A DNA stretch of 64,000 nucleotides, taken from contig JBEPUT010000012.1 in assembly GCA_041691395.1 (NCBI GenBank), positions 1,575-65,574 on the forward strand, given 5' to 3'. Both the position numbers and the translations under genes were made by a program. Position 1 is the stretch's first letter. Each line of letters starts with the position of its first letter. Below are positions 19,912 to 55,202 of the stretch, in pieces. The notes beneath the pieces were generated by a model. It did not search any database. It was not told the origin of the DNA and was given only the letters and a program-made list of their open reading frames with translations. Source of the DNA: Chitinophagaceae bacterium (GTDB taxonomy: Bacteria > Bacteroidota > Bacteroidia > Chitinophagales > Chitinophagaceae).

Positions 19912-19995
19912 GCCCGGGTGGCGAAATTGGTAGACGCACTGTGTTCAGGTCGCAGCATCCGCAAGGTTGTGCTGGTTCGAATCCAGTCCCGGGCA
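19912..19995 (+). tRNA. tRNA-Leu(CAG)
   Basis: GCCCGGG acceptor stem, CTGTG-TTCAGGT-CGCAG anticodon arm, long variable arm and TTCGAAT T-loop. Confidence 0.97.
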
Positions 19996-19998
19996 CCG

Positions 19999-20120: not shown

Positions 20121-20162
20121 ACTTTGGATTACTGTTTGTGGCATAGCCACAAACAGATATTT

Positions 20163-21257
20163 ATGACAATTGAAGAGAGACAATCTGACAATGGGAAAAA
20201 AACATATTACAGGTTTAAATGGGCGAATGGTCCAAAAGATAAAATGAGCGCTGGCGTTTTCACCTACACTAAGCCTAGGACCCAGATCGAAAAAAATCAC
20301 AACAAAGAAGCATTAACCATTCTGGAAATCAAAAGATCTCAACTCGTAATAGACAGACAATCGATAGGAACCGGATACATACCCGCGCACCGATATAAGA
20401 GCAATTTTATCGACTTCTTTGATGACTTTGTTAAAAAGAACGCCCGCGTTGGGAAACGACATCTTCATGCCAGCTTCGTGCACTTCAAAGAATTCGTAAA
20501 GAAACAATCATTACCACCGCTCGAGGTCACCGAAGAATTCTGCACGCGATTCAGAAATTATCTATTAGACAAATTCAACGGCGACACCCCAATGAACTAT
20601 TTCTCGGAATTTAAGCGCATGATAAAGGCGGCCACGAAACAGGGCTATTTCCGCAACAGTCCAGCCGAAGATGTTAAAGCCAAGACCGGCAAAAATCGAA
20701 AATTAAAAGAAAACCTCGAAGTGAAAGAGTACCTCAGCTTATTAAATACACCGTGCCTGAATGAAGAAGTAAGGGAAGCGTTCATTTTCTGCTGCTACAC
20801 AGGACTAAGGTGGATAGATGTAAACCTGTTAACCTGGAAAGATATCGGCAGGGACACCATTAAAACCAGGTTGATTCAGGCGAAGACGGGCCAACCCGTC
20901 GTTATCACGATGCATCCAATTGCCCAGGCGATTGTCGAAAAACGACATTTAAGGCTAATAGAATCCGGGTTAGAAGAACGGATCTTCAGGCTTCCCAGCG
21001 CAGACGGAGCAAATAAACTTTTAAAAAGCTGGGTAAACTCCGCATCGATCACCAAAAAGATAACCTGGAGTGTAGCCAGACTCAGCTTTTCCATACTTCT
21101 TCAGGATGAAAGCGTAGATACTGCGACGGTGGCGCTGCTACTCGGCCACAGGACAACAAAGTATGTCAACGACACCTACAAGCGTCACCGCCCCAAGGAT
21201 CAAACAGCAATAATCGCCAAATTGCCGTCACCTGAAAAGACACCCGACGTGGCCTGA
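20163..21257 (+). CDS. Tyrosine integrase
   Basis: FIFCCYTGLRW (Arg I), QAKTG (Lys), WSVARLSF (variant HxxR), LGH and a downstream Tyr. Start at ATG 20163. Confidence 0.92.
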   Translation: MTIEERQSDNGKKTYYRFKWANGPKDKMSAGVFTYTKPRTQIEKNHNKEALTILEIKRSQLVIDRQSIGTGYIPAHRYKSNFIDFFDDFVKKNARVGKRHLHASFVHFKEFVKKQSLPPLEVTEEFCTRFRNYLLDKFNGDTPMNYFSEFKRMIKAATKQGYFRNSPAEDVKAKTGKNRKLKENLEVKEYLSLLNTPCLNEEVREAFIFCCYTGLRWIDVNLLTWKDIGRDTIKTRLIQAKTGQPVVITMHPIAQAIVEKRHLRLIESGLEERIFRLPSADGANKLLKSWVNSASITKKITWSVARLSFSILLQDESVDTATVALLLGHRTTKYVNDTYKRHRPKDQTAIIAKLPSPEKTPDVA

Positions 21258-21537: not shown

Positions 21538-23502
21538 TTACCTTGGTGCCTTCATGGACAAGCGTTGGATTTCAGCATCGATCAATTCAGATATATCGGC
21601 CTTAATTCTAAAATAATTGTCCGTGATTTTACCAGGATCAATAGCTTTCCCCTGCGGCATTTGGTGCGATCTTCCTCTTTTCTCCTTCATGGAACCATGC
21701 CCCAAATCAATCTCACAATGAAAGCATTTAAGCTTTATCTTTTGATTGGGGTCGTCCGCAACCATCCCGACAAATTCACCAGAAGAAAGGGAAGCAATTT
21801 TGGATTGGGGTATCGCAAAATCCATCTGTGTCGACCTGCTGACAGAAGTATCCGTTCGGTTGATGGTCATACTGTTTTTAAGTTGGCTAATCTTGCCAAA
21901 CCGGTCAGCCAACACTTTAGCAGTCTCCCCCATGACCTGACCGGAAATGATATTTCCCGTAATATTCATAATGACAGACGCCTGGTCGCTTCCATAATCC
22001 TTTTTCAGCTGACTAAAATCCTGCATTCCGAGGCAGGCTGCGACCTTATTGGATCTGGCAGTGGCAATTAAATTATCAATCCCATTCAGAAATATCGTCG
22101 GAAACTCATCAAAGACGAGGCTGCATTTATGCTTGTTTTTTTGATTGACCATTTTGACAAGCCGGTTAACATAGAGCGAAAGGACCGGCCCGAAGGTCTG
22201 TTGCTTTTGCGGGTTATTAGCTAAACACAGCACTTTGGGTGATTCGGGGTTGTTAATGTCCAGGGTGAAATCGTTGCCCGATAAAACCCAATACAACTGA
22301 GGTGAAGAAAGCCTTGCCATACCAATTTTCGCGCTGGCGATCTGGCCTTCCAACTGTTCCATGGCGTCATTCTGGTAAGCTGAGATAAAAGGGTTGATCA
22401 TCACCTCAATTTCCGGTTCAGTTTTCAGCACTGGAAAGAGGTTTTCATAATCCACCTGCATTAATTCAATAACATGCGGAAGCGTACAAAACTTGCCATT
22501 CATGTATTTCCGAAGAAACCAAATTACAGCAGTCACAAAGTTGATCGGTGACTCGACAAAAAAATCGCCTTGTTTTGTAATCCATTCCCGATTTAACCCT
22601 AGTAGAATTGATCTGGAGGATTCAATGGCATCCGTTATATCAATCATACTCGCAGGATCAAGGGGGTTGCATCTGTCGCTCTGTGAGGGGTCATCCAGGT
22701 TTATCCGACAAAATATCGGCGCGACAAGGAAAGAAGTCGCATCTCGTTGCAATGCATTAAAGGCTATCCCGGACAAATCCGGATATTTAAAATCATAAAC
22801 CAACATAGTAAACCCCTTAGCGATATGCTGTTTTATCAACCTTTGAATTACAAAATAGGACTTACCCGAACCAGGAGAACCAATGACCAGCAAACCTCGA
22901 AAGGGATTGATGATATTAATCCAGCTCCTCCGAACTTTTCCTTTAAGACTATATAGTGCAGGCAGATTAACAGAATAGGCATTGGTCAGCAACCGTTCTT
23001 CCTGAGGAAATGTTTCATTCAGTTCATTAAAAACGTCCAGTCCAAGTTCTATCCTAACCAGGCGCGATAATCTTGATCCCCCAGCAAGGACGAGAAGATA
23101 ACCAAGCGTAGTCAGGCTGATATATGTAATGCAAAGGGATTGCTCGCTGGCATCAATATCTAGGCATAGGCCAGCCGAAAAGTAGGTAACTAATCCGGCA
23201 CCCAGAAGCCAAACAATAGACCGCCTCCTGGTTTTCCCGTCCTTCCGCCCCTGACCACCGATTAGAGAAACGATTAACAAACCCAAAGAAAGAAGCTTCG
23301 CATGGTTACGCTCAAATAGCCCGGTCCGTGCAATATTCCACAAGAATCGATTTGTAATGGGGTTTGTAAATCCCCAATCCGCAAACGCATCATAACAGAA
23401 ATAATAGAAATGGAGAAGCAATAAAACTATACTGCCCATCCTTGTAAATTCGAGGACTTTTTCCAGCCCCACAGCATTTTCTCCTGTCCCACTTGCCATC
23501 AC
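21538..23502 (-). CDS. mobC: Type IV coupling protein, Bacteroidota MobC (YWFCY domain plus TraG/VirD4 ATPase)
   Basis: FYYFCY motif, Walker A GSPGSGKS, Walker B LVFDEFPT and ARSNKVA. Confidence 0.92.
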   Translation of the reverse strand: MMASGTGENAVGLEKVLEFTRMGSIVLLLLHFYYFCYDAFADWGFTNPITNRFLWNIARTGLFERNHAKLLSLGLLIVSLIGGQGRKDGKTRRRSIVWLLGAGLVTYFSAGLCLDIDASEQSLCITYISLTTLGYLLVLAGGSRLSRLVRIELGLDVFNELNETFPQEERLLTNAYSVNLPALYSLKGKVRRSWINIINPFRGLLVIGSPGSGKSYFVIQRLIKQHIAKGFTMLVYDFKYPDLSGIAFNALQRDATSFLVAPIFCRINLDDPSQSDRCNPLDPASMIDITDAIESSRSILLGLNREWITKQGDFFVESPINFVTAVIWFLRKYMNGKFCTLPHVIELMQVDYENLFPVLKTEPEIEVMINPFISAYQNDAMEQLEGQIASAKIGMARLSSPQLYWVLSGNDFTLDINNPESPKVLCLANNPQKQQTFGPVLSLYVNRLVKMVNQKNKHKCSLVFDEFPTIFLNGIDNLIATARSNKVAACLGMQDFSQLKKDYGSDQASVIMNITGNIISGQVMGETAKVLADRFGKISQLKNSMTINRTDTSVSRSTQMDFAIPQSKIASLSSGEFVGMVADDPNQKIKLKCFHCEIDLGHGSMKEKRGRSHQMPQGKAIDPGKITDNYFRIKADISELIDAEIQRLSMKAPR

Positions 23503-23514
23503 ACCTCATTTTAA

Positions 23515-24798
23515 TTATCTATTCAATTTTCGCTTCTTCTTCTTCCTTTTTGCCTTTAGCGCGTGCGGCGGAAGCGCATTCATTCCCTCATTCTTCAACA
23601 ATTGTTCAACCAACGAAGCGGCGAAGATTTTCTTCTCCAGTATATTTCCGGGTAGCGTGCGATCCTTGACGTTTACCAGCTGTTTAGGCCGCTCCCACCG
23701 CTGGCAATCGTTGGCAGATTCGCGCGCTTTTACCATTTCATTTAAAACCGCTAGCTTGCTTACCAAACTTCCTATGCTATATTGTTTACCCAACTCACTT
23801 CCATTAAACACTGCCTTAGTCCGGTGATCGACAAACGTCACTCCGTAAGGCAGACCGTTGACATTTCGCCGGATGATCGTCGAGATTTCTTTTGCCGACA
23901 ATCCCTCAATCAGTTGGTCTATCGTTATCTTACCCAAATTCAACTCTTCATCAATCGCCGCTTTCAATGCCAAGCGGTTGGGAAGGCGTTTGCTGACATT
24001 TTTCCGAAATTTACTCTCCAGATTCCGCAGCGTGGGTTGACTATAAATGGAACTGGCTTTAATCGGTACACCCATTTTATTGCCGTGTGAATCAATAATA
24101 TGGTAAACCAGTCCACCATGCGAATGAATTCTCCCGCCCATACGACCAGCGTCGGCCATAATGTTGTAACTATTCAAAACGGCATTGAAGGAGGGCAGCG
24201 ACGTGTATTTATATTGTTCCATCACTTGATCGAGCACGTTAGTAATGGACCTTTTCGTTTCGGACTTGCCGTATTGGATGGAGTCCGGAATCAGCAAATC
24301 GGGCTGCAATATACTCTTCGAAGCGCCCGACCCAGCCCTCATTAAACCAAATTCGATCTCGATTTCCTTTCTGGCAAACTCAGATTGGTTTCTTCCGATG
24401 TTAAAAGTATCGATTCGACTTCCGTCCGAGGTTATGGTCGTCGTGACAATATGGATATGGGGGTGGGCGGCATCTGTGTGTCGGTACACCAGAAACGGCT
24501 GGAGGCCAAATCCGATTTTTTCCATGTATCGGCCTGCAATTACAGAAAGCGTGTTTTCATCTAATTTTTCGGAAGGATCAAAATTCAGGGAGATATGGAG
24601 GACATTGCTTTTTTTCGACCGGTCGTTTAGGGAAATTAGGTTCTGAAATCTGCTCAGTTTATCGTAGAAATTAAGGTCGGCCAAATCCTGCAGATAATTT
24701 CCAGCAGCTATACAATACGCGTTGCCATTTAATACCTTCTGTTCATTGTAATTCAGTGCGCGCTTGATGCTATGCGGGCTCGTTATTTTTGCAACCAT
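23515..24798 (-). CDS. mobB: MOBP-type relaxase (Bacteroidota MobB)
   Basis: Motif I YNEQKV, motif II HISLNFDPSE and HUH motif HTDAAHPHIHIVT. Confidence 0.92.
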   Translation of the reverse strand: MVAKITSPHSIKRALNYNEQKVLNGNAYCIAAGNYLQDLADLNFYDKLSRFQNLISLNDRSKKSNVLHISLNFDPSEKLDENTLSVIAGRYMEKIGFGLQPFLVYRHTDAAHPHIHIVTTTITSDGSRIDTFNIGRNQSEFARKEIEIEFGLMRAGSGASKSILQPDLLIPDSIQYGKSETKRSITNVLDQVMEQYKYTSLPSFNAVLNSYNIMADAGRMGGRIHSHGGLVYHIIDSHGNKMGVPIKASSIYSQPTLRNLESKFRKNVSKRLPNRLALKAAIDEELNLGKITIDQLIEGLSAKEISTIIRRNVNGLPYGVTFVDHRTKAVFNGSELGKQYSIGSLVSKLAVLNEMVKARESANDCQRWERPKQLVNVKDRTLPGNILEKKIFAASLVEQLLKNEGMNALPPHALKAKRKKKKRKLNR

Positions 24799-25184
24799 AA
24801 TTGATGGATTTGATTCATGCGATACTTGATTTCATCAACTTTATTCAAGAAAGACCGGTGCGTCGACTCATAGAGAAAAACCCAGGATCTCATTTGGGGT
24901 ACGGTATCCAGTGTGTGCAAGCGTTTTACCGCCTGATTGAAATTGTTACCGATAGCTGACAACTCGTTCTTTAGCAGTAGCATTTCCGCTAGGAATGCAT
25001 CAGCTGATTCGTTCCGGTATTTGACGGTCACTGGGTGAGCCAACATCATTTTCCGTGCATATTCACTGAGATTTCTGCAGGTTGTATGCTGAAACTTCGT
25101 ATAGATCTCCTTATACTCCTCCGGCTTGACCCGAAAGTTTATCCACTCTTTAGCACTGTCACTTTTTTCATTCATTGGCCTCAA
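24783..25184 (-). CDS. Relaxosome accessory ribbon-helix-helix protein (MobA/MobC type)
   Basis: INFRVKPEEY, LSEYARKM and ELSAIGNNFNQAVKRLH. Overlaps the relaxase start. Confidence 0.88.
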   Translation of the reverse strand: MRPMNEKSDSAKEWINFRVKPEEYKEIYTKFQHTTCRNLSEYARKMMLAHPVTVKYRNESADAFLAEMLLLKNELSAIGNNFNQAVKRLHTLDTVPQMRSWVFLYESTHRSFLNKVDEIKYRMNQIHQLWLQK

Positions 25185-25265
25185 CTTTCAAAATTCTTAA
25201 TCAAACCCCGATGACTGCCAGTCAGAACGCCCGTCGACTCCGGAGACAACCAGGGCGCCGAGAAC

Positions 25266-25310
25266 CAATTGTGCAACAATTGAACATCTCGCCCGTTGCA
25301 AATCCGGCAA
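25266..25310 (+). other. Candidate oriT with MOBP-type nic site
   Basis: Inverted repeat CAATTG-TGCAA-CAATTG (25266-25282) followed by ACATCTCG^CCCG. This resembles RP4 CTATCCTG^CCCG and lies upstream of the relaxosome genes. Confidence 0.65.
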
Positions 25311-25504
25311 CGTCACCCCCTTCAGGTTTTTCTGTGGGCCCGTCTGAAGTCTTCAAAATTAGACATGACAGTATAGGGAACGAACAGCTGATCAAAATCT
25401 AACCAGCTGGTATTAAGCCTGGAAAGGCCGAAAATAGATTGGAGTTTTTTTAGCCATTAAAGACAGGGATATGAAATTGTTTCTATGGCATAAAAGAAAG
25501 GGGG

Positions 25505-25984
25505 TTACATGAGCCCCTGATCAGCGAAAGAGAAAAACCCCTCGTCATTGAGGATTAGGTGGTCCAACACCTTAATGTCGTGAAGACCAGCAGCCAGTCC
25601 AATTTTCCGGGTGAGATCTTCATCCGAACGGCTTGGTTTCAAATTGCCGGAAGGATGATTGTGAGCAAGGATGAGGCTACAAGCAAGCACCTCCAAGGCA
25701 GCTGCCAGGATAATCCTTGGATCGGCAACCGTACCGGTGACTCCCCCGGTCGAAACCTCAAAAAGCCCTATCACCTTGTTTGCCTGGTTTAAAAACAAGA
25801 CCTTAAATTCTTCGACGAGTCCAATCCTACCCTCATCCCAAAGCGTTCTGAATATGTTGTGTGAATCTTCGGAACACCTAATCAGAATTCGCTCTGAAGC
25901 TTTCACCTGGGAAATATATACCAACTTAACTTTTGCTACCTGATTCAGGATCAAAGCTCTCATTTCATTTTCCATAACATCCAT
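25505..25984 (-). CDS. radC: RadC-like JAB domain protein
   Basis: EEFKVLFLN, GGVTGTVADPR, LAHNHPSGNLKPSRSD and VLDHLIL motifs. Confidence 0.93.
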   Translation of the reverse strand: MDVMENEMRALILNQVAKVKLVYISQVKASERILIRCSEDSHNIFRTLWDEGRIGLVEEFKVLFLNQANKVIGLFEVSTGGVTGTVADPRIILAAALEVLACSLILAHNHPSGNLKPSRSDEDLTRKIGLAAGLHDIKVLDHLILNDEGFFSFADQGLM

Positions 25985-26246: not shown

Positions 26247-28046
26247 CTAACCTTCAGGATTGAGCTTATCCATGCGATTTCTCAGATTGTTCAATCTGTC
26301 TTCCAGGACGGCTTCCCGTTTTTCGGTTTTTTCCCGCTGGCTGATTTCGATGGACTGAATATCAGTACCCGCCATTTCGCCTATCTTGTAAAGAAAATAA
26401 CCGGCTTCCGTCCTCGGAGACTTGCTGTCGGTATTTGATACTATCGCAGCCCTGACAAGATATCCAAACTGACTATTGGAGAGTTCCTGTAACCCCAAGT
26501 ATAGGCTCTCTGCATTTTTGTGATCAAATTTGTCATTTTGCATCCACAACTTTTGAAGCACTTCATTTCTGCTCGAATAATCCAGAGACTGAAAAATGAT
26601 AAGCCGGGCCGCTGCCCAGTCTGCGACGGTAGGTTCAGAAGTCATTGAAGACATTTCCGTTTGAAATTTCTCATGCACGCTTATTTGAACCTTCTCCCTG
26701 TCCAACTCCTTCAACCTTTTCTCCCGGTCAGACAGCCGAGCTATTTCCGCCCGCAGCAGATCAGGCGTTGCGGTTCCAGCTTTGAGCGCTGACTGCACTT
26801 CTTTTGCGGTCACTTTTGGCAGCAGGTTTTCGGACTGCGCAGGCCGCGGAATAAAGAAAACCACCTTACATTCAGAATCTGAGAAATGAAGTCCTTTCAG
26901 TACCTCGCCCTGAAGTACCGCAGACTTATACCGATCCGTTTCCGAAATATATTCCTCCATCGCCTGATTGTAACCACCCTCGTCAAATTCCGGTTCGGCT
27001 TCTTCATCTTCGCCTTCTATCATAAAATCATCCTTTTCTGGTATTTCGGGATCTGAACAAATGGACATTTTGCACCGGTCATATTTTGGTAAATCGTTGG
27101 CCCCGGCGATGACTTTGCACGCGAGTTCCAGCATTTCCGGAATATCCCAGCTATACAGTAAGGCGTTCGGTTTCTCGGTTTCAAAAATTCTGGCCAATTT
27201 TATTGCATGATGAGCATTGCATTTTCTTTCAAAACATTCCCCATTAGTACAAACGGCCTCTTTTGCTTCGTCCGGAAAAAGCGTTTTCATCGTAGCAGTG
27301 TTAAACGGGCATTTGGAGCAGGCTCCGACCTCCGGCAATAACTGTTTATCTTTTCTGTCAAATGGGGCTGAGTTTAAACCGTACTTAAATTGAGAAAGCA
27401 CATACTTTAGATTTCCGACTTGGAAATGCTTTTCTTTTTGCCAATTGGCGCAGTACTGACTGAAAAATGCCTGCTGTGCGGATGTGGATAAAACACATAT
27501 TTGCAAGGCTTCGGTTAGGTTAAAACTGTCAGACAGAAAAATTTCCTGAATCTCCGGAATCAGGGAGGCGAGTTTAATGCGTGCGTAAACAAAGGTTTTG
27601 GATTTTCCCAGCCGCGCGGCGATTTCATCGACGGTTTTCCGGTTTTGCTGCATGTATCCTATGGCCAGCGCCTCATGAATTGGGTGTACATCCTCTCCAT
27701 GAAGATTTTCAACCAATTGAATTTCGCGGACTTCGTCGTCATTCAGGTCTTTGATCGTCACCGGGACTTTTAAAAGGCTCACCATGGCCGCAGCCCGTAA
27801 CCGCCTTTCTCCGGTAACCAGTTCAAAACGACCGGAAGGCATTGGGCGAACCGTCAGGTTTTCAATGATACCGAACAAAACAATGCTGTCAGCCAATTCC
27901 TCAATGCCTATTTCCGAGTAGTGCTTCCGGTAATTCAGGGGGCTGAAATCAATTTCCGAAACGGATAACAATTCATACCTGCCTTCCGGCTGCGTAACCG
28001 AAATAGGAGGTTTTGATATGGGTTTATTCTTGATTTTTGAAGTCAT
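26247..28046 (-). CDS. ParB/RepB/Spo0J-family protein with a long C-terminal extension (ICE type)
   Basis: NYRKHY..ELADSI..GII..LTVRP..FELVTGERRLRA, then LVENL, then an HTH (IAARLGKS). 599 aa. Confidence 0.88.
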   Translation of the reverse strand: MTSKIKNKPISKPPISVTQPEGRYELLSVSEIDFSPLNYRKHYSEIGIEELADSIVLFGIIENLTVRPMPSGRFELVTGERRLRAAAMVSLLKVPVTIKDLNDDEVREIQLVENLHGEDVHPIHEALAIGYMQQNRKTVDEIAARLGKSKTFVYARIKLASLIPEIQEIFLSDSFNLTEALQICVLSTSAQQAFFSQYCANWQKEKHFQVGNLKYVLSQFKYGLNSAPFDRKDKQLLPEVGACSKCPFNTATMKTLFPDEAKEAVCTNGECFERKCNAHHAIKLARIFETEKPNALLYSWDIPEMLELACKVIAGANDLPKYDRCKMSICSDPEIPEKDDFMIEGEDEEAEPEFDEGGYNQAMEEYISETDRYKSAVLQGEVLKGLHFSDSECKVVFFIPRPAQSENLLPKVTAKEVQSALKAGTATPDLLRAEIARLSDREKRLKELDREKVQISVHEKFQTEMSSMTSEPTVADWAAARLIIFQSLDYSSRNEVLQKLWMQNDKFDHKNAESLYLGLQELSNSQFGYLVRAAIVSNTDSKSPRTEAGYFLYKIGEMAGTDIQSIEISQREKTEKREAVLEDRLNNLRNRMDKLNPEG

Positions 28047-28063: not shown

Positions 28064-28312
28064 TTAATAGATATTTTTTGAAATGAGGTCTTTTAATTTA
28101 CACTTGACCTCTTTGGCGACCTCGCCGCGCCATGTGGAGGCATTGGAAAGAAAATAGAGCAATATCACTTTCGCCGAATCCTCGCCGTAGCGGTCGTTAA
28201 TTGTTTGCAGTGAATACATGGCCTCCAGGTAAGGCACAGCGCCAAAATATATTTTCGGCCAGTTGGCGTAAATTATCGGCGCGATTTCTGATATCTTGTC
28301 AGGGATTTCCAT
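28064..28312 (-). CDS. Small conserved hypothetical protein of the phage/ICE type
   Basis: W..YFGAVPYL.AM..L..I.D.YG.DSA..I.LYFL.NA.TWRGE.A motif, recalled from mobile-element proteins. Function unknown. Confidence 0.7.
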   Translation of the reverse strand: MEIPDKISEIAPIIYANWPKIYFGAVPYLEAMYSLQTINDRYGEDSAKVILLYFLSNASTWRGEVAKEVKCKLKDLISKNIY

Positions 28313-28358: not shown

Positions 28359-28760
28359 TTAAAATGGAAGGTCTTCGGCAGTTATCTGAGTTGCGGCTTT
28401 CGTCAAAAGTGCCTCGGATTCGTCGGCGGGCTCACTTGTTCCGTTTGCCTTTGGCCGGTCACCCAGTTTGACATTATTGACATGGAAAGTCAGATTGGCC
28501 CTGGCCTCACCGGCTCCATTGGTATATGCATTCACGCCAATGGTTCCGAAAAGTTCCACCTGACGGCCTTTGGTCAGGTAAGGCGCAACGCCGATTGCCT
28601 GCCAGTAAGAACAGTTTACGAAGATTGTTTGCTGTTTTACTTCCTGTGATTCTTTCGATTTATAACTATTATTGATCGCAATACTGAATTGTACGACTTT
28701 GCGTCCATCGGGTAATTCCTTTACTATTGCATCTGCTGTTAAACGTCCAACGAGTTCCAT
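28359..28760 (-). CDS. ssb: Single-stranded DNA-binding protein with acidic DLPF tail
   Basis: LVGRLTADA OB-fold start, YLTKGRQV and C-terminal EDLPF. Confidence 0.9.
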   Translation of the reverse strand: MELVGRLTADAIVKELPDGRKVVQFSIAINNSYKSKESQEVKQQTIFVNCSYWQAIGVAPYLTKGRQVELFGTIGVNAYTNGAGEARANLTFHVNNVKLGDRPKANGTSEPADESEALLTKAATQITAEDLPF

Positions 28761-28900
28761 AAAATGATAATTTAAAATTTGACTAATTGATTGAAAAATG
28801 AAAATCTGAAGACTGCGCAGGGGGAGACCGGGAAGAAGTTGTCATGTTGAAATTTTGATGATCGAAAAAAACAGGTTTGAAAAAGAAAAAAGGGAAAAAA

Positions 28901-29037
28901 AGAAAGCAAACCCTAAGCTGCCAGGGCTTGGGCAGACACCAAAAGGAAACGGAATAAAGTCCGCAAAGCGGTGCCTGAAAGGCATTTGTGCCGTAGTCTT
29001 TTGGTTTGTGAAACGGCAGGCAGCTAAATTGCTTTCT
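28901..29037. promoter_or_regulatory. Multi-branched stem-loop upstream of ssb (candidate ssDNA promoter or structured RNA)
   Basis: Nested perfect stems 28901-28909/29029-29037 (9 bp), 28916-28922/29019-29025 (7 bp) and 28938-28945/28998-29005 (8 bp). Inner hairpins CCGC-AAA-GCGG and TGCC-TGAAA-GGCA. Confidence 0.55.
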
Positions 29038-29119
29038 CTTTTGCCACCCGTTTTCGGTTCAAGCCTGAATATTGCCCGTAGTTAGGTCTGTTCCACTGAG
29101 ATAATTTTTTTGACCTGCA

Positions 29120-29476
29120 TTAGAATAGGAAGACGTCCTCGATTAAATAAAACTGTGGAGTCGGCGAAGCCAAAAGGATAGATAAGACCAAATAAATAAT
29201 TTGTTTTTTCCCAGGGTGCGATCGTAAATAAGCCATAGATGCCCGCCGGATATTCAACCATTTCTTTCGCGTTATCTTTTGTTCCGGGTAACCATATCTA
29301 ATGGAGTGTCCGGTTTTAACCTCAATGAAATAAAGCACGCCCTCCTTGGCTGCGATTAGGTCAATTTCCAAATGGCCGGTACGCCAGTTCTGTTCCATTA
29401 TCTGGTAGCCCTGATTCTTAAACCAGGATAGCGCAAGCACTTCTCCTGACCGGCCGGTTTCGTTATGTCTTGCCAT
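29120..29476 (-). CDS. yraN: YraN-family PD-(D/E)XK nuclease
   Basis: G..GE..A...GY.I...NWR...EIDLIA....FIEVKT. Start at ATG 29476. Confidence 0.85.
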   Translation of the reverse strand: MARHNETGRSGEVLALSWFKNQGYQIMEQNWRTGHLEIDLIAAKEGVLYFIEVKTGHSIRYGYPEQKITRKKWLNIRRASMAYLRSHPGKKQIIYLVLSILLASPTPQFYLIEDVFLF

Positions 29477-29554
29477 TAGAATCCCCTCCTTGCCCAACCC
29501 GAATGTCTCGTGGTGATTCGAATCAAAAAGGATTTGTCTGAGACAAAATCCGCA

Positions 29555-31156
29555 CTATTCATAAAATTGTTTTTTATTTTGGGGAATATTCATGGCAACA
29601 ACCTTCTTGGCTCTAGTCCCTGCGTGGATGGAAAGCGGTCTGTCCAGGCTTCGGAAATGAAGCGCTTCGGCAACGTGCGGCAGATCAACGATGACACTTC
29701 CAGCCAGGTCAGCAATTGTCCGGGAGAGTTTGAGGACTCGGCTGTAAGATCTCGCTGACATTTGCAAAACATCTATCTGTCTGAGTAGAAAAGCCTTAGT
29801 CTCTTGTTCCATCTGACAGGCTTTTTCAATTATTTTGTCTGGCATTTGGGCATTATTGTAAATGCCCGGGTAGAATCGAAGACGTCTGGATTGAATCGCG
29901 CGCGCCTTGATCACCCGCTGGCGTACCAAGTATGAGGACTCCGGCCGGCCAGGCTGCTCCACGATCTCAAAACCGGAAAGCGGGTCAACCTCTATGTGCA
30001 GATCTATCCTTTCTAGCAATGGGCCGGATATTTTCCGTCGATACCAGTAGAGCGCTGTCTTGTTGCAGGTGCAGGTCCGGGTGGGATGTCCAAAGTACCC
30101 GCAAATGCATGGATTCATGGCTGCCAGCAGGATGAATGACGCCGGAAATTCAACAGATAATTTCGCTCGGGAAATCAAAACCTTTCGGTCTTCCAGGGGT
30201 TGACGCATCACCTCGATGGTGCTCCTTCTGAATTCCGGTAACTCGTCAAGAAATAATACCCCATTATGGGCTAGACTGATTTCCCCCGGCAGTGGCATAC
30301 TGCCTCCTCCGGCGAGGGCAACGTCGCTCATGGTATGATGCGGATTTCGGAATGGCCGGTCCCGAATGAGTCCGGTAAGCGGTTTCCCGGTGTTTATCAC
30401 ACTATAGATGCGGCTGGTCTCCAGTGACTCAGCTACCGTCATCGGTGGGAGGATCGAAGGCATCCTTTTGGCCAGCATCGTTTTACCAGATCCTGGAGGG
30501 CCTATAAGCAGTGCATTGTGTCCACCCGCTGCGGCAATTTCAAGTGCCCGCTTTACTGGCTTTTGTCCCTTGACATCGCTGAAATCAGGACCTAGGGGAT
30601 AATACGCTTTCTTTGGCTCCATCGCGATCATGGGCGTCAACGCGATATCAGACTGGACAAATGCAATAACTTCTTGTAGCGTGCTGATGCCATAAACAGC
30701 CAATCCACTGACCAGAGTGGCTTCCGGTGCATTTGCCTTTGGCAAAATAATACCCCGAAACCCTTCCCGGCTTGCCTGATAGGCCATGCACAATGCACCC
30801 CTGACCGGAAAGATCGTCCCGTCGAGGCCTATCTCACCGATAAGCAGGTAATCGGACAATTTGCCAATATCCTGAACCTGCTCCGAAGCGATGAGAATGC
30901 CAAGGGCCATCGGGAGATCGAAAGCCGTTCCGGATTTCCGCAAATCCGCAGGTGCCAGGTTAATGACCAGCTTCGTGCGCGGCATTTGGAAGCCCAGTTG
31001 TTGAACCGCGATAGCGATCCTGGAGAGAGATTCTTTTATCCCGTCGTCCGCCAGCCCGGTGATACTATAGCCTATGCCGTTACCGACGCTCACCTCTATA
31101 ACAATACGAAATGCATCCAATCCATATATTGCGCCACTGTATAATTTTGCCAACAT
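29555..31156 (-). CDS. comM: YifB/ComM-family AAA+ ATPase (Mg-chelatase-like, MCM-related helicase)
   Basis: NLAPADLRKSG..FDLPMA, Walker A GPPGSGKT, LAHNGVLFLDELPEF, AAMNPC.CG, SGPLLERID and SARSY.RVLKLSRTIADL. Full length. Confidence 0.93.
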   Translation of the reverse strand: MLAKLYSGAIYGLDAFRIVIEVSVGNGIGYSITGLADDGIKESLSRIAIAVQQLGFQMPRTKLVINLAPADLRKSGTAFDLPMALGILIASEQVQDIGKLSDYLLIGEIGLDGTIFPVRGALCMAYQASREGFRGIILPKANAPEATLVSGLAVYGISTLQEVIAFVQSDIALTPMIAMEPKKAYYPLGPDFSDVKGQKPVKRALEIAAAGGHNALLIGPPGSGKTMLAKRMPSILPPMTVAESLETSRIYSVINTGKPLTGLIRDRPFRNPHHTMSDVALAGGGSMPLPGEISLAHNGVLFLDELPEFRRSTIEVMRQPLEDRKVLISRAKLSVEFPASFILLAAMNPCICGYFGHPTRTCTCNKTALYWYRRKISGPLLERIDLHIEVDPLSGFEIVEQPGRPESSYLVRQRVIKARAIQSRRLRFYPGIYNNAQMPDKIIEKACQMEQETKAFLLRQIDVLQMSARSYSRVLKLSRTIADLAGSVIVDLPHVAEALHFRSLDRPLSIHAGTRAKKVVAMNIPQNKKQFYE

Positions 31157-31180
31157 ATTTCTCTATTTTAATAATTAGAT

Positions 31181-31513
31181 TTATCTGTCCAGATCGACTA
31201 GCTGTGTTGCATGAATTTCTGTGATGGTCCGGGTTTGGCCACTTTCATCAGAAAAGGTTTTGTACCGGATAGAGCCTTCCACAAGCACATGACTTCCTTT
31301 AATAATATAGTTCTTCATTTTCTCGACAGCTGTTTTCCCCCAGATGACGACCGCATGCCATTCCGTAACTTTTTTCGGTTTGCCGTCCCGGCAGAAATAG
31401 AACCGATCAGTCGCCAGCCTTAAAACAGCGACATCCGTACCATCGCCTATCCGCTTAATAATCGGATCCTTGCCCAGGTAACCGATGAGTTGCACCTTGT
31501 TCATTGATTTCAT
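31181..31513 (-). CDS. ssb: Single-stranded DNA-binding protein lacking the acidic C-terminal tail
   Basis: MNKVQLIGYLGKDP, TEWHAVVIWG, KGSHVLVEGSI. Ends at the OB fold (LVDLDR). Confidence 0.88.
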   Translation of the reverse strand: MKSMNKVQLIGYLGKDPIIKRIGDGTDVAVLRLATDRFYFCRDGKPKKVTEWHAVVIWGKTAVEKMKNYIIKGSHVLVEGSIRYKTFSDESGQTRTITEIHATQLVDLDR

Positions 31514-31625
31514 CCTTTTAAGATTTTAGATTCAGACAATATATTTTCAACACGAAGATGGGAGTTGAAAAAACCTGCAGCAATAGCATCAACGTGTATA
31601 GGAATATAGAAACGGGTAGAAACCT

Positions 31626-31994
31626 TTACCATCTTTTGATGATTTTAAATTGATTATTTTCCATCGCCCGATAGCCGTAATTGAACGAGAAAATGAACTC
31701 ATTCTTGGTAGTTTGTGCGATAAGATGGTGCGTATGGTAGTCAAAATCATATCCCATTTTGAGTAAGGTTTCCCGGTTTACATAGAATTCCGGCTTCTCC
31801 CCAAGAAAACTCTTCAGGATAATTCGGTTCCGCTTGAGGATAGTCAGAACTTGCCTGATTTCCTGCGCATTTTCAATTTTGATCACGTTGTGGTGGTCAT
31901 TTTTACATTTATCTGAGCAAAAGCGTCTATCAATTCTGGAACCGATGGACAGCGAAGCGCCGCATTGTATGCATGGAGTGGATTGTGTGGCCAT
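31626..31994 (-). CDS. Zinc-ribbon hypothetical protein (CxxC...FCSxxC)
   Basis: CIQCG...RRFCSDKCKNDHHN, then LKRNRIIL...GYDFDYHTH. Confidence 0.75.
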   Translation of the reverse strand: MATQSTPCIQCGASLSIGSRIDRRFCSDKCKNDHHNVIKIENAQEIRQVLTILKRNRIILKSFLGEKPEFYVNRETLLKMGYDFDYHTHHLIAQTTKNEFIFSFNYGYRAMENNQFKIIKRW

Positions 31995-32023
31995 TGACAA
32001 ATCTTTAAGACTGTTATTTAATA

Positions 32024-32049
32024 AAAAAAGGCAGCTCAGCGCTGCCTTT
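32024..32049 (-). terminator. Intrinsic terminator
   Basis: AAAGGCAGC/GCTGCCTTT stem with a T-tail on the minus strand. Confidence 0.65.
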
Positions 32050-32085: not shown

Positions 32086-32889
32086 TCAGGCGCGAACCCG
32101 CTTCTGACTCACGTTTTCCTTTTTGCGCGTCGCGGGATCGGCAGTGTTTGTCTTTCCCTCCTTTTGAGAATCCTCAATCGACGCCATATCATCCTGCCCG
32201 CTCAAAGACACAATAAATGCCAGGTCGTTTCCAGAAAGTAACTTACCCTCAGCGTCAAATATTCTAAGCGATTTGAATTGCGGCACCGCTTCGACGTCGT
32301 AGGAACAGATTTTACCGTCCAATGAAAGGGTGACCGGTTCCCGATTGCCTTTTCTTAACCCGCCAATCAGTTTCTCCAGTGAATCGGGTTTCTCCAGTTC
32401 CAGAAATGGAAAACGCTCCAGGGTCTTATTCAGGTCAAACCCATACCCGTCCGTGAAATACTGCAACCTGAAATTTCCTTTGGCATCCGTCTCCTGGAAA
32501 TTGAACTGTATCCAGCTGTTATATTCCACTTTCACATGCGACAACAATTTTTCGCAATAAACCGCACGGCCGTAAAGCAAATTATAACCCTTCAGCAGTT
32601 CGATTACCGGCCCGTTCTTTCCGTAGTAAAAAATCTGCTGCAAGCAATCCCGGGTATTCTCCCGGCTGATAATTAAATGATAGCGATGAAAATAGTAGAG
32701 GTCGGTCTCTTTCCAATGCTTGAATTGAAGGATAGCAAACACCGAATCATCCCCAAAGTCCGGTTGATATTCGATGGAAAAATCCGGCGGTGTATCCTTC
32801 AGCCGCGCTTTCAACTGCTGGGCCACAGAATCCGGAAATCCCGCTTCTGTAACATACTGCTTCAGGTACTCAAAATTCTTCTGATTCAT
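32086..32889 (-). CDS. Conserved ICE-associated hypothetical protein
   Basis: MNQKNFEYLK....GF N-terminus, YNLL.GRAV and W.QFNF.ETD..GN, recalled from Bacteroidota conjugative elements. Confidence 0.7.
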   Translation of the reverse strand: MNQKNFEYLKQYVTEAGFPDSVAQQLKARLKDTPPDFSIEYQPDFGDDSVFAILQFKHWKETDLYYFHRYHLIISRENTRDCLQQIFYYGKNGPVIELLKGYNLLYGRAVYCEKLLSHVKVEYNSWIQFNFQETDAKGNFRLQYFTDGYGFDLNKTLERFPFLELEKPDSLEKLIGGLRKGNREPVTLSLDGKICSYDVEAVPQFKSLRIFDAEGKLLSGNDLAFIVSLSGQDDMASIEDSQKEGKTNTADPATRKKENVSQKRVRA

Positions 32890-33514
32890 GATGTAATTTT
32901 TTATTGATGATTAAGAAAAAGAGATCCTCCGGTGTGTGACAATATTTGGGCAGCAGGCTGTGCTTTCTTTGGGGAAGCGCGAATGCGTTGCCGGATACTA
33001 TACTGTTCATGAGTTCTGTGGCGAAATCAACACAATTATATTTATAGGTTTGATACCGCATCGTCTTCGCCAGTGACTGGGCGCGCAGCATCAGCGAATC
33101 AAATTTTTCGCGGTTTAGGTCCGCTCCAAATGATGCATCATACTGATGATTAGCATTGTCGGCCAGGGCAGCATCCACCGGTTTATTGTTGAAAACTCCA
33201 GGAAAGCCGGCCCTCGGGTAAAAACCAAAATATTGGACGAGAGAGTCGGGACCGTTACGCTTTTTCAGCGCAAGAAATACATGCCCCACGTATCCCTTCA
33301 AAGGATCAAGCAGCCAGTGCGGATGCTTTCGACACGCCAGACGGACGAATAGCTCCACATGGTATTCGGCCCCTTTTTCGGGCAGGCGGTCAAAAGCGGG
33401 CCAAAACGCGGAAACAGGATGTGTATTTTTTGGGAAGCCAATGTCTGTCGAGGTTGACAAATGGCCCTGGACACAAGCTTGCAACAGGCAAGCGAAGGCG
33501 AGAAGGTATTTCAT
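32870..33514 (-). CDS. Predicted lipoprotein with a permuted papain-like His/Cys dyad
   Basis: Start MKYLLAFACLLQAC (lipobox) at 33514, then GHVFL...YFGFYP...YNCVDF. Confidence 0.6.
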   Translation of the reverse strand: MKYLLAFACLLQACVQGHLSTSTDIGFPKNTHPVSAFWPAFDRLPEKGAEYHVELFVRLACRKHPHWLLDPLKGYVGHVFLALKKRNGPDSLVQYFGFYPRAGFPGVFNNKPVDAALADNANHQYDASFGADLNREKFDSLMLRAQSLAKTMRYQTYKYNCVDFATELMNSIVSGNAFALPQRKHSLLPKYCHTPEDLFFLIINKKLHHESEEF

Positions 33515-33625
33515 GCAATTCGTTTCTGATTCGAAACAAAGATGCAAGCCGTGAACGGATCCCTCGGTGTGAAAAGTGCAATAAAATGTTTGCGAAATGA
33601 AAAAACCGTTGCCCCTAAAATGGCG

Positions 33626-33672
33626 CCAGGGGATCCCGTTGATCACTCAACCAAGATCCCCTGGACTTTTTT
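33626..33672. terminator. Stem-loop between the AraC and lipoprotein genes
   Basis: CCAGGGGATC (33626-33635) pairs with GATCCCCTGG (33655-33664), with an inner GTTGA/TCAAC stem. The T-run is on the + strand, antisense to the flanking genes. Confidence 0.45.
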
Positions 33673-33738
33673 CCATTGGCTTGTCAAAATTAAAACACTC
33701 ATCAATGCGCAGAAAAATAGATTATTAACGGCTGTGGA

Positions 33739-34728
33739 TTAATTGCCATTTCGGCGGGTCTCCGTTGGCCGGTACCCAAAATGTCTTTTGAAGGCAGTCG
33801 AAAAATTATGAACATCCGGATAGCCGGTAAGCCACGCAATTTCAGATACAGTCTGCTTGCCCTCCAGCAGCAACTGGCGCGCCCTGTCCATCCGCATCTC
33901 CTCGCCGAAACGAAAAAGACTGCATCCGAACAGGTTCTTAAAGGCGGTTTTCAATGTAAAAACGTTTGTACCCGTTTTCCGGGCGAGTTCAGTCGCCGTA
34001 TATTGATGTTCGAAGTCCGACAGGATCAGCGCTTTCGCCGCTTGCGCATATTCGATGGAAACGCGCGAGAATTTTTCAACAGCCGTTTGAACACCCGATA
34101 TATTCCGCAGCATCAGGATGAGCAATTCCATGGCTTTGGACTCATAGAAGGCCGGCGCCATAGATTCCAGGAAATCATATCGCAACATCTCGTTGACCAC
34201 GCGGATCATGCCCGGGCTTAGGAAACGGGTAGAACCGAGTAAACTCGTAGCAACAGCTTTTTCCACCTTTTCCAGGAAAACGGAAAGCATCGGAAAATAA
34301 GGCGCAAACTGCTGCAGCGTTTCCTTATGATAATGCACATCGAACGTATGGTATTCCCCGACCTGTTCAAAGGTCGCCTCGTTATGCACGAAGGGCGCAA
34401 AACTCAGATCGAACTGCTTTTCCTCCATCACGGTATGCACAATGCCATCCCATTTGGCCCGCATTTGTCGCTTAAACGGAATATGCAGTTCCAGCACGGC
34501 CAAATCCGCTCGTGCGACAAGGGTCACCGGCGTCCGGATGGCGTAGACGCTATACCAGATATCGAAACCAGTACCCGGGAAATGTTGGAAAAGCATGTCA
34601 CCGAAGGGCGAAAAGGTAGCAATGGGCGTAGAACCCACGAGGCAGTGCTTTTGGTAAACCGGCAGAATCCGGTTCCCATAGACAATCTCATCCCCCGCAC
34701 GGGAATTGATCTGAAGCTCCACTGGCAA
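33739..34728 (-). CDS. AraC-family transcriptional regulator
   Basis: C-terminal double HTH: ELARKTGTN..LK.AFK..FG and VSEIAWLTGY....FSTAFKRHFG. Confidence 0.9.
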   Translation of the reverse strand: MPVELQINSRAGDEIVYGNRILPVYQKHCLVGSTPIATFSPFGDMLFQHFPGTGFDIWYSVYAIRTPVTLVARADLAVLELHIPFKRQMRAKWDGIVHTVMEEKQFDLSFAPFVHNEATFEQVGEYHTFDVHYHKETLQQFAPYFPMLSVFLEKVEKAVATSLLGSTRFLSPGMIRVVNEMLRYDFLESMAPAFYESKAMELLILMLRNISGVQTAVEKFSRVSIEYAQAAKALILSDFEHQYTATELARKTGTNVFTLKTAFKNLFGCSLFRFGEEMRMDRARQLLLEGKQTVSEIAWLTGYPDVHNFSTAFKRHFGYRPTETRRNGN

Positions 34729-34843
34729 AGGTTTTTGGCGTTAACCCTCCACACAAATTCCGTTAAAAGAAAGTTACGAAAAGCCGGAAACTTTTTTAGA
34801 ACACTAATTTTTTTAGTATTTTTGTGCTTTAAATTCCCACTTT

Positions 34844-35284
34844 ATGAAACGGGTTGCTACGAATGACGGACAATTTCTGTTTGACAATAATCTTCGCGGC
34901 CTCGCATTCTTCGCCCGGATCGCCTTCGCGTCGCTGATCTTTTCTCCCGTTTTGTTTACCGGATATTGGTTAGCCATGAAGTTCGTCGCGCGTGGTGACT
35001 CCGCGCTCGTCTGGATCATCGCGACCCTTCTTTTCTCCGCAATGATTTATGTCGTTCTGCAAATCATAAAAACGCACATGGTCAAACTCCGGCGGCAAGG
35101 CAATTGGTTTTGGCTCGCGTTATTTATTCTATTCGTCGGCTTTGTTTGCGTCCCTCCCGTTTTAATTACATTGCCATGGGCGCTGTATTTGACCCATCGC
35201 AACCAAATGATCGCCTGGATGCTCGAGATCGCGTTCGCTTTATTCATCTATCGGCAATACGAACTCAAGATAAACAGGAATTAG
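34844..35284 (+). CDS. Hypothetical 4-TM membrane protein
   Basis: Four hydrophobic segments. Confidence 0.65.
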   Translation: MKRVATNDGQFLFDNNLRGLAFFARIAFASLIFSPVLFTGYWLAMKFVARGDSALVWIIATLLFSAMIYVVLQIIKTHMVKLRRQGNWFWLALFILFVGFVCVPPVLITLPWALYLTHRNQMIAWMLEIAFALFIYRQYELKINRN

Positions 35285-53593: not shown

Positions 53594-53603
53594 TTTTAAT
53601 TTA

Positions 53604-55166
53604 TTATTTTTTGTCTTCCGGACGTTCTGGACGAAGAAGGTCGACGCCCGCGCCTCCCATAAATGAATAGAGCTCGGCATGCTGCAGAATAAACCGCAGA
53701 CGAAGCCCGGCATGCAAGTCTGGTAAATGTTTATGTTTTTGCCAGCTGACCGGCAACGCCGTGCCATCACTTCGGATAATATGGCATTCCCCAGCACTAT
53801 AGCCTGGCAAAACGTTTCCATTTTCGTCAAGCACTTCTACTTTTAATGAACCGGAGCCGGCGTTCGCATTTACCAGCAGCTCCTGATGAAGATTTTTCAG
53901 CGACCGGGTCGTTACGATCCCAATGGTCTCATCCGCATCCAGGGAAACAAAACCGTCCTTGCGCAAAGTCGCAAGGCCAATGGCAGCCTTTGCTGAATCT
54001 TCCGGCGCGCCATGCGTCTGCTTACATCCTCCGTACCAGAGTTTGATCGTATTGTTTTCAACCAGCGGATGGTTGGGTGTAAAGATCATGCCCTGATCCC
54101 AGGAACCCCTCGGGCCAACGGGTAAAATAGGGATGCGTTCCCCATTTACTGTTTCCTCGCGGACCCAATGAATGCCATCCCGACTGCTGGCCAGTTCACA
54201 ATAGATTGGTCCATCATCATGAGCATCTGTTATATGAAATATCCAAAGAAAGCCGAGGTATCCGGATTCGTAAGGAAAAGCACTCAGTCCGTAGAATTCC
54301 GTCCGCTGACCCGGCTGAGTTACCCAGTGATCGTCCGCTTTATCCGGCATCATGATGAGACGGGTTGAAGGCCAGTGCTCAAAATCTTTCGTAGCGGTGA
54401 ACCCAACACATCGCCGCCTGAAACCCCGGACAATGGCAAATATTTTCGGAAAACCAATATAACGATGGGTATGATCATCCCAAACAAATTGGCCAACGTC
54501 CCCCGGGTCTTTGAGAACCGGGTTATGCGCAACGTCAGTCCAGTGAATACCATCCGGTGAATACGCGCCCCAATAACCTCGGATCAAATGATCCGGTCTC
54601 GTACGGCCGTAATCATAGTTGAGCAGTTTGTACCGGCGATTGGAATCTTTTTCCCAGGGAGTATAAATAACCTGGGGTAAAACATCCTCTTTTGTACGGC
54701 GCAAAAAAATATTATTGGCTTTTGAGCCTTTGTAATCAACGATGCCCAGCTCCGGTTTTTCCCAGGTCAGCCCATCCTTACTGGTTGCATACAGATCAGC
54801 ATACTCACCAGCCCAGGATTGATACCATAGCCTGTAACCCTTTTCTTTTTCGTTGGGCAACACAGTTCCAAACACGTAAGCCATTCGGCCCTCCCAGGGT
54901 TTATCTGCGATGAGTAAGGGATTTCCGGCATGTTTTATAAACGGGTGATAGGTTCGCTTGATATGCTCTTTTTTGGCTACCAGATAATCGTCTGCCAGCA
55001 GTTGCCAGCTCCCTGCTAGACCGGCAAAGGCCGTCTGTTCCGACGTATCCACCATGGAGGGAGCGCCAGCGCTCAACGGGGCATTTTGGATCCCGCCCGC
55101 AGCCATACAAATAACGGCCGGGATGAAGACGAAAAATAAATACCTTATTTCAATACCCTTAAGCAT
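53604..55166 (-). CDS. Secreted five-bladed beta-propeller putative glycoside hydrolase (paralog A1)
   Basis: Signal peptide, ADKPWEG, SKDGLTWEKPELG, SRDGIHW, ATLRKDGFVS and a C-terminal beta-sandwich. Confidence 0.7.
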   Translation of the reverse strand: MLKGIEIRYLFFVFIPAVICMAAGGIQNAPLSAGAPSMVDTSEQTAFAGLAGSWQLLADDYLVAKKEHIKRTYHPFIKHAGNPLLIADKPWEGRMAYVFGTVLPNEKEKGYRLWYQSWAGEYADLYATSKDGLTWEKPELGIVDYKGSKANNIFLRRTKEDVLPQVIYTPWEKDSNRRYKLLNYDYGRTRPDHLIRGYWGAYSPDGIHWTDVAHNPVLKDPGDVGQFVWDDHTHRYIGFPKIFAIVRGFRRRCVGFTATKDFEHWPSTRLIMMPDKADDHWVTQPGQRTEFYGLSAFPYESGYLGFLWIFHITDAHDDGPIYCELASSRDGIHWVREETVNGERIPILPVGPRGSWDQGMIFTPNHPLVENNTIKLWYGGCKQTHGAPEDSAKAAIGLATLRKDGFVSLDADETIGIVTTRSLKNLHQELLVNANAGSGSLKVEVLDENGNVLPGYSAGECHIIRSDGTALPVSWQKHKHLPDLHAGLRLRFILQHAELYSFMGGAGVDLLRPERPEDKK

Positions 55167-55202
55167 AATTAAAATTTCAAATGCTCAATGACCATCGGCA
55201 GG

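Follow-up and report, generated by a model that had tools for sequence, protein, structure and literature searches.

Relation to described systems

The ComM helicase and YraN nuclease of natural transformation (Nero et al. 2018; Hardy et al. 10.1101/2024.02.06.579203) are the closest described relatives of a gene module found in 64,000 nucleotides of metagenome-derived DNA from a Chitinophagaceae bacterium (GenBank assembly GCA_041691395.1, contig JBEPUT010000012.1, positions 1,575 to 65,574; this whole stretch is hereafter the window). The four genes of the module, which encode ComM, YraN and two single-stranded DNA-binding proteins (SSBs), are part of an integrative and mobilisable element (IME) of ~15 kb beside tRNA-Leu(CAG) and lie between the ParB, RadC, origin of transfer (oriT) and mob genes on one side and cargo on the other. 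The ComM of the window is not a host gene; it belongs to an old lineage carried by mobile elements of Bacteroidota, mostly Chitinophagaceae where the hosts are named. Compared to the chromosomal pair, the proteins of the module belong to the same families, keep the catalytic motifs and likewise combine a helicase with a PD-(D/E)XK nuclease. The window pair differs in that it resides on a mobile element with comM and yraN adjacent and flanked by ssb genes, and in that YraN is often exchanged for other nucleases in related elements. The role in transformation is that described for the chromosomal pair.

The leading regions of conjugative plasmids, which enter the recipient first, provide a second point of comparison. 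Those of F-like and IncI plasmids (with ssb, psiB, ardA, parB-like genes, DUF932/YubP and Frpo) are likewise next to oriT, on the side opposite the relaxase, and have genes for which the transferred strand is the template. The families shared with the elements described here include SSB, ParB-like, DUF932 and UmuC proteins, and a hairpin with promoter boxes stands upstream of ssb in both (PMC9849209, PMC11541004). The Bacteroidota elements, by contrast, have -33/-7 boxes of their own and no PsiB or ArdA. In SXT/R391, one of the integrative and conjugative elements (ICEs), the ssb-bet-exo genes join an ICE-encoded SSB to homologous recombination on element DNA, which generates hybrid ICEs (PMC2786100); however, the annealase and exonuclease of SXT/R391 are lambda Red-like, are unrelated to the AAA+ branch-migration helicase and PD-(D/E)XK endonuclease of the module and come from hosts of another phylum. 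In ICEBs1, the small tailless protein HelP, which has an oligonucleotide/oligosaccharide-binding (OB) fold, acts with the helicase PcrA in processing element DNA (PMC3542172). PcrA is host-encoded and of superfamily 1, and HelP has no similarity to SSB, whereas the module combines a PF00436 SSB with an element-encoded ComM. The tailless competence protein SsbB of Bacillus subtilis consists of the OB-fold only, has no acidic tip and handles incoming single-stranded DNA; the corresponding SSB of the window is element-encoded.

The original prediction regarded comM and yraN as usually chromosomal. This stands for the literature consulted on ComM and YraN, which treats transformation as chromosomally encoded and leaves mobile copies unmentioned; it is qualified for yraN by a YraN-family cluster in the supplementary family tables of a plasmid leading-region study (PMC11541004). 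The terms ComM, chelatase and YifB do not occur in its main text or in 14 of its supplementary files, and no literature joining 'leading region' with YifB was found. The module is thus classified as new in the sense that known enzymes occupy a separate mobile lineage with a new genomic role, for which no prior description was found.

A mobile lineage of ComM

The ComM of the window (29555..31156, minus strand, 533 aa) is a ComM/YifB-type AAA+ helicase of the mobile lineage. Its ChlI, Mg_chelatase and Mg_chelatase_C domains (PF13541, PF01078 and PF13335) all score above the gathering threshold and form the three-domain architecture with a Lon-like ChlI N-domain. The protein scores 557.7 bits on TIGR00368 (cutoff 362.4) and aligns along its entire length with the solved ComM structure (PDB 8rxd; E=3e-110). 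The GPPGxGKT (Walker A) and VLFLDE (Walker B) motifs, the conserved arginines and a four-cysteine cluster (CxC...CxC) are invariant in 26 diverged ComMs of the mobile clade, which argues for an active enzyme.

The relatives of this protein fall into two groups. The closest ComMs, which are metagenomic or from Chitinophagaceae, are 57-72% identical to the window copy. A second, tight group consists of 514-aa ComMs that are ~55% identical to the window copy and represent the housekeeping gene: their identity is 78-90% across Chitinophagaceae genera, and their genes have neighbours such as uvrB, dnaB and enolase. The element ComM is ~50-55% identical to any chromosomal Bacteroidota ComM. In neighbour-joining trees, the element-borne ComMs are monophyletic (100/100 bootstraps) and sister to all sampled chromosomal Bacteroidota ComMs, forming a distinct mobile clade of the kind that the original prediction had proposed to look for. 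The complete chromosome of Panacibacter ginsenosidivorans carries both types, the chromosomal comM at 2.378 Mb and the element copy at 4.590 Mb, and the two proteins are 55% identical; in this species the element ComM is a paralogue of the chromosomal gene, and the window ComM, which stands in the separate clade, is not an orthologue of the chromosomal transformation gene. The source metagenome of the window also holds chromosomal-type comM fragments at 125-200x, close to the host depth of 100-160x; these are not the element copy, because the latter is only 48-58% identical to them at the nucleotide level. Neither an SSB nor a YraN gene occurs within 6-10 kb of chromosomal comM at any of ~165 loci. 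The clade, its contexts and the second copies together contradict the scenario in which these are the only comM and yraN of the genome and lie in core synteny.

Members of the mobile lineage were sampled as eight element types (the window, L005, L006, L009, L012, L174, L175 and L176), and the surroundings examined are those of IMEs or ICEs or are recombinase-associated, with fewer mobile hallmarks in L175 and L176, where p124-SSB-ComM is kept (p124 is a 124-aa protein described below). The L012 locus corresponds to the window gene for gene: AraC, p124, SSB, ComM, YraN, SSB, ParB, RadC, MobC, relaxase and type IV coupling protein are followed, in the order of the window, by a 78-aa open reading frame (ORF), the integrase and tRNA-Leu(CAG), all in a different chromosomal background, which bears out the claim that the genes are element-borne. 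In L006-L008, the module is linked to RadC and MobC, while that of L009-L011 resides in a CTnDOT-type ICE with TraJ/TraM/TraN, ArdC and a methyltransferase (MTase)-SNF2 pair, and the ComM of this locus is seen on 24 contigs. The P. ginsenosidivorans locus (L005) is an ICE-like region in which SSB-ComM-SSB adjoins DUF932, MTase-SNF2, ParB, primase and UmuDC. In L174, the module lies beside a serine recombinase, IS110 and a PDDEXK_3 nuclease.

An exact-protein lookup with the window ComM returned no record, and a genome scan with this protein found 4 distant loci only. A genome scan with the mobile-clade alignment gave, among the matches listed, only chromosomal ComMs (<=55%) and is uninformative on prevalence because generic peptides were chosen. 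ComM occurs in 56 of 72,556 records of the plasmid database PLSDB and in 32 of 50,697 records of a phage collection; these are mostly non-mobilisable records, several of them chromosome-sized, or unannotated virome contigs, and none of the ComM matches in the two collections is of the mobile clade. Three ComMs with labels of other phyla (L131, labelled Thalassomonas; L150, Bifidobacteriaceae; L019, Caulobacter) are typical of Bacteroidota, and the tree puts that of L131 with Prolixibacteraceae and Lentimicrobiaceae; the three contigs that carry them are probably mis-binned in metagenome-assembled genomes.

The conserved unit around ComM

The original prediction described a module of four co-oriented genes. 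These are present as four intact minus-strand ORFs: a tailless ssb (31181..31513), the full-length comM, yraN (29120..29476) and a tailed ssb (28359..28760). As a conserved unit, the four-gene module does not hold. The conserved core is instead the Zn-ribbon protein p124, the tailless SSB and ComM, usually with a PD-(D/E)XK nuclease after them, while YraN is found in 3/8 element types and the tailed SSB is generic.

The tailless SSB (110 aa; PF00436, E=3e-26) ends in ...LVDLDR at the end of the OB-fold and does not have the acidic C-terminal tip (D-[LIF]-P-F), which the 133-aa tailed SSB (PF00436, ending in ...AEDLPF) does have; counterparts of the latter in related elements all end in DLPF. 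Both window SSBs are above the Pfam and TIGR00621 cutoffs. The tailless ssb lies 24 nt upstream of comM in the window, overlaps comM in some elements and is directly upstream of comM in 7/8 element types, and its product always ends in ...[ND]LDR. This tailless OB-fold SSB is predicted to be a dedicated partner that is co-produced with ComM.

Of the neighbours of SSB-ComM, the most constant is p124 (31626..32000, minus strand), which comprises a Zn-ribbon (CxxC...Cx3C), a long helix and a small beta domain. It is next to ComM in 11/11 mobile-clade loci; its gene runs in the same direction as comM in the window and L006 and divergently in the others. The family has 1180 representatives in public data, and the AlphaFold2 model of p124 has a predicted local distance difference test (pLDDT) score of 95.6; there is no Pfam or NCBIfam family for it, and a fold search against the PDB gave no match. 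From gene position, our guess is that p124 acts as a regulator or adaptor of the ComM unit.

A PD-(D/E)XK nuclease is encoded beside comM in 5/8 element types, downstream of it except in L174, where it is upstream. YraN (UPF0102) is the nuclease of the window, L006 and L012, while L006 and L009 have a TnsA-N-like protein and L174 has a PDDEXK_3 protein. The window YraN is a divergent copy on the minus strand that probably starts at M8 (position 29476; the ORF extends to 29497). It scores 73.6 bits on PF02021 (cutoff 23.6) and matches 3fov. The EID...EVK catalytic motif is kept in the element YraNs, which score under the NCBIfam equivalog cutoffs, are 45-54% identical to chromosomal YraNs of Chitinophagaceae and form two branches nested among them in a tree of 118 aa that is weak. 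This placement hints that element YraN may have been captured more than once. A YraN-ComM partnership in these elements is suggested by gene adjacency in the 3/8 element types.

A candidate single-strand promoter hairpin and the probable polarity of transfer

A gap of 359 nt separates yraN from the tailed ssb, and within it, upstream of the tailed ssb, lies a long imperfect hairpin (28885..29060, plus strand, which is the template strand). As single-stranded DNA, it folds better than shuffled sequences (z = -2.4 to -3.9), and its arms are conserved in four elements with ComMs 64-72% identical, with 38 conserved pairs of which 5 are compensatory. Copies of the hairpin, which has no Rfam match, are found at 28885-29060(+) of the window, L006:12510-12685(-), L009:12350-12532(-) and L012:11960-12131(-) and at loci L178-L297, and the invariant arms are CAAAAGGAAACGGAATAAA ... 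TTTATGCCGTAnnCTTTTG. At least 120 loci in species-representative genomes, which are nearly all Bacteroidota and span many families, have an exact copy of the 19-nt core; the gene and box counts below refer to the 120 loci listed (L178-L297) and are a lower bound. The genes that follow in the orientation of a single-strand promoter encode DUF932 (27), ParB-like (25), RadC (6), DUF6266 (6), DUF6943 (5) and tailed SSB (3) proteins.

The -7 box of the Bacteroides/Flavobacterium promoter consensus is TAnnTTTG. An exact match is present 3' of the right hairpin arm, on the same strand, in 66/120 loci, with a modal spacing of 21 nt from the invariant TTTG (-33), compared to 0/120 on the opposite strand and 3/120 in the left flank. 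Placed on the 3' arm, the boxes face away from the genes when the DNA is duplex, while in the folded transferred strand they would direct transcription into the genes. The hairpin is thus a candidate phylum-wide Frpo-like single-strand promoter of Bacteroidota. Its polarity would settle which strand is transferred and lends support to the leading-region reading, in which the plus strand would enter 5' first in the order oriT, radC, parB, ssb, hairpin, yraN, comM, ssb and p124. The original prediction had the module on the leading side, 3-6 kb from oriT; the polarity of the hairpin agrees with this and with the transferred strand as template, and the module lies 3.0-6.2 kb from an oriT that is itself a candidate. 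A sigma-70 promoter scan was set aside as not applicable to Bacteroidota.

Plasmid leading regions are dominated by families that include ParB, DUF932 and SSB (PMC11541004), and in the F plasmid, Frpo2 is upstream of ssbF (PMC9849209); no literature linking Frpo-type promoters to Bacteroidota was found. None of the hairpin loci (0/120) has ComM, YraN or p124. The tailed SSB is thus part of a generic leading-region kit of Bacteroidota, to which the ComM unit is a rare add-on. Tailless SSBs are common in ComM-free Bacteroidota leading regions as well, so taillessness is not specific to the ComM module.

The hairpin is often found in two copies ~2.04 kb apart. In many Flavobacteriaceae-type elements (L180, L182, L188, L199, L214, L215, L220, L235, L249, L256 and others), such paired same-strand hairpins bracket a ParB-like gene of ~600 aa and recall the Frpo1/Frpo2 pair of F. 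The leading-region SSBs of Flavobacteriaceae-type elements are tailless (...EILLLGSKNDK) and often encoded as adjacent pairs (e.g., L207, L244, L271 and L274), and in Chitinophagaceae-type elements a tailed (DLPF) SSB follows the hairpin.

Proposed function and alternatives

ComM extends three-strand recombination intermediates and is recruited by DprA through its C-terminal Mg-chelatase domain (PMC12012524), which is retained in the window ComM and counts in favour of a recombination function. YraN co-evolves with ComM, binds it, acts with it and is proposed to resolve displacement loops (D-loops) (10.1101/2024.02.06.579203). The module is tentatively proposed, with somewhat less than even confidence, to act as a helicase-nuclease that processes recombination intermediates of the transferred strand with homologous resident DNA. 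In a more specific form, which is on balance unlikely, the mobile-lineage ComM, its dedicated SSB and the nuclease would be a private D-loop machine that acts in the recipient on the transferred strand, such that element DNA or chromosomal DNA co-mobilised in Hfr-like fashion is integrated by homologous recombination. In the mechanism proposed for the recombination reading as a whole, the incoming single strand would, after transfer, be coated by element SSBs together with host RecA/DprA and would pair with homologous resident DNA, either of a related element or matching co-mobilised chromosomal flanks. The element ComM would then drive three-strand branch migration and YraN would cut the displaced strand, with D-loop extension and resolution as in natural transformation. 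In this way, transferred DNA could be rescued or recombined even if relaxase-mediated recircularisation and integrase-mediated insertion fail, and hybrid elements could be generated.

The recombination reading is put forward because an intact helicase is kept, a nuclease partner recurs, the module lies in what would be the first DNA to enter and the bet/exo genes of SXT offer a precedent. Gene content, mobile context, the separate clade, the kept catalytic motifs and strand polarity are observed, whereas the expression timing, substrates and biological pay-off of the module are inferred. Several observations weigh against it. No hairpin of the single-strand promoter type is recognisable upstream of the comM operon, which begins after a terminator at 32027-32049, and early expression in the recipient is thus unsupported for ComM itself. 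YraN is absent from 5/8 sampled element types, and in 3/8 no PD-(D/E)XK nuclease is recognised beside ComM. The window YraN has lost the RFD motif, which is replaced, and falls below the cutoff in all 23 NCBIfam models (the best is NF009154, 79.3 vs 109). The element carries neither dprA nor recA, so the recombination model depends on host factors, and an integrase-bearing element does not obviously need homologous recombination. In a different system, inactivation of host yraN had no effect on transfer of the Legionella ICE p45, which indicates that conjugation has no general need for YraN.

The main alternative, itself rather unlikely, is that ComM would serve as the unwinding or replication helicase of the element itself, with the tailless OB-fold protein as cofactor, either in donor unwinding of the nicked element or in rolling-circle or complementary-strand synthesis. 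This would suit a relaxase without a helicase domain (427-aa MobA/VirD2), a comM operon that, having no single-strand promoter, fits expression from double-stranded DNA in the donor, and the presence of the module in elements without a recognised nuclease; the tightly coupled and most constant partner is the tailless SSB (24 nt upstream of or overlapping comM), and the pair would have its analogue in PcrA and HelP of ICEBs1, where helicase progression depends on HelP, an OB-fold protein (PMC3542172). However, the recurrent PD-(D/E)XK nuclease and the repeated presence of YraN, the specific partner of ComM, are left unexplained, the known role of ComM is in recombination and not replication, and the majority of Bacteroidota elements that have this leading-region kit do without ComM (0/120). 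In a further, improbable alternative, ComM, SSB and the nuclease would be a counter-measure that interferes with host transformation or with defences that target single-stranded DNA, so that the element escapes curing or attack; DprA or host ComM/YraN could be titrated, for instance, or competing DNA that enters could be degraded. The residues for ATPase activity, Zn binding and nuclease catalysis are all conserved although the clade is deeply diverged, which tells against this alternative and favours an enzyme over a decoy. There is no specific pointer to such interference, and we know of no evidence for natural transformability of Chitinophagaceae, which also counts against it. In its favour, genes for anti-restriction and establishment abound in the region (ArdC, MTase-SNF2, DUF932 and ParB), transformation is proposed in the literature to cure mobile elements and anti-defence genes have hotspots in leading regions (PMC11541004).

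That comM and yraN of the window are ordinary host chromosomal genes near an integrase would be in keeping with the near-universal presence of both genes on chromosomes, but is rejected on phylogeny and context and is hardly credible: the window ComM stands in a separate clade at ~55% identity to a chromosomal Chitinophagaceae clade that is 78-90% identical internally, in the L012 background the module again accompanies mob genes at the same tRNA-Leu target, an adjacent ssb or yraN is missing at ~165 chromosomal comM loci, and the source metagenome holds chromosomal-type comM pieces at 125-200x. Functions outside these readings take up the remaining probability.

ComM and YraN are currently described as chromosomal, transformation-specific recombination factors. 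A separate ComM lineage long kept on elements, together with SSB and nuclease partners of its own, would mean either that transformation-like recombination sometimes acts on conjugative DNA or that ComM has a second, so far unrecognised role in the processing of mobile-element DNA; the recombination reading suggests, for its part, that some conjugative elements treat transferred single strands with transformation-type machinery. If true, the private D-loop machine would be an element-maintained mechanistic bridge between conjugation and natural transformation. P. ginsenosidivorans is a tractable test case, as a sequenced isolate with a closed genome and both ComM copies. The hairpin, if confirmed, would be a phylum-wide single-strand promoter that marks Bacteroidota leading regions and their polarity and would be useful for annotation and for conjugative delivery vectors.

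Layout, ends and mobility of the element

The left end of the element is at its integration target, tRNA-Leu(CAG) (19912..19997, plus strand; ARAGORN and Rfam), followed by a tyrosine integrase (20124..21257, plus strand; Phage_int_SAM_5 and Phage_integrase). The homologous element at L012 likewise abuts tRNA-Leu(CAG), and the end sequence from tRNA to integrase is conserved between the two. The mobilisation operon (21538..25184, minus strand), assigned by Pfam and with homologues in the same order in L012 and L008, encodes MobC/NikA (25184..24783), the MobA/VirD2 relaxase (24798..23515) and a YWFCY-type coupling protein (23502..21538). Upstream of mobC lies the candidate oriT (25228..25316), a non-coding block of nested inverted repeats (CGAGA..CAATTGTGCAACAATTG..TCTCG, plus GTTGCAAATCCGGCAAC) that is nearly identical in the window and L012 despite diverged flanking proteins. 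A TAnnTTTG box at 25354-25361 on the minus strand probably serves as the mob promoter.

Between 25505 and 34728, every gene is encoded on the minus strand and reads toward the candidate oriT. The radC and ParB-like genes, which had been noted alongside the module, are located at 25505..25984 (RadC-like JAB protein; PF04002, E=6e-35) and 26247..28046 (599 aa with ParB_N and HTH_ParB, related to PRTRC-type ParB, with homologues in L005, L012 and L176). They are followed by a gene for an 82-aa protein (28064..28312) without a family match that is conserved in L006/L008. Beyond p124, the terminator-like hairpin at 32027..32049 (minus strand) divides the upstream genes from the p124-ssb-comM-yraN unit. 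The distal part of the element (32086..35284) encodes 267-aa and 258-aa proteins of no assigned function, an AraC regulator (34728..33739, minus strand) and a membrane protein (34844..35284); AraC and the 267-aa protein are conserved in L006 and L012.

The right end of the element probably lies at ~35.2-35.7 kb, since depth falls there in the source metagenome and other metagenomes that contain the element lack its right flank. A search for attR with tRNA 3'-end repeats and k-mers found no repeat of >=11 nt, and an Rfam scan of the element returned the tRNA only. There are no type IV secretion system genes within the window, in which the genes beyond ~35.7 kb are metabolic; the element is thus mobilisable and not self-transmissible. 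A contig from a rhizosphere metagenome (run X2) joins 37450 to 18107 head-to-tail with 12 extra letters, off the likely element ends. A soil-metagenome contig (run X5) that joins 28810 to 31968, and so skips 28811-31967 (p124, ssb, comM, yraN and the hairpin), was set aside as a possible alignment artefact, because only 21 nt support the joint on one side. To the right of the element, at 53600-63400, a metabolic region resembling a polysaccharide utilisation locus contains a run of paralogous genes of ~500-550 aa without a Pfam match, whose copies are 73-76% identical at the nucleotide level and spaced 1.6 and 3.3 kb apart.

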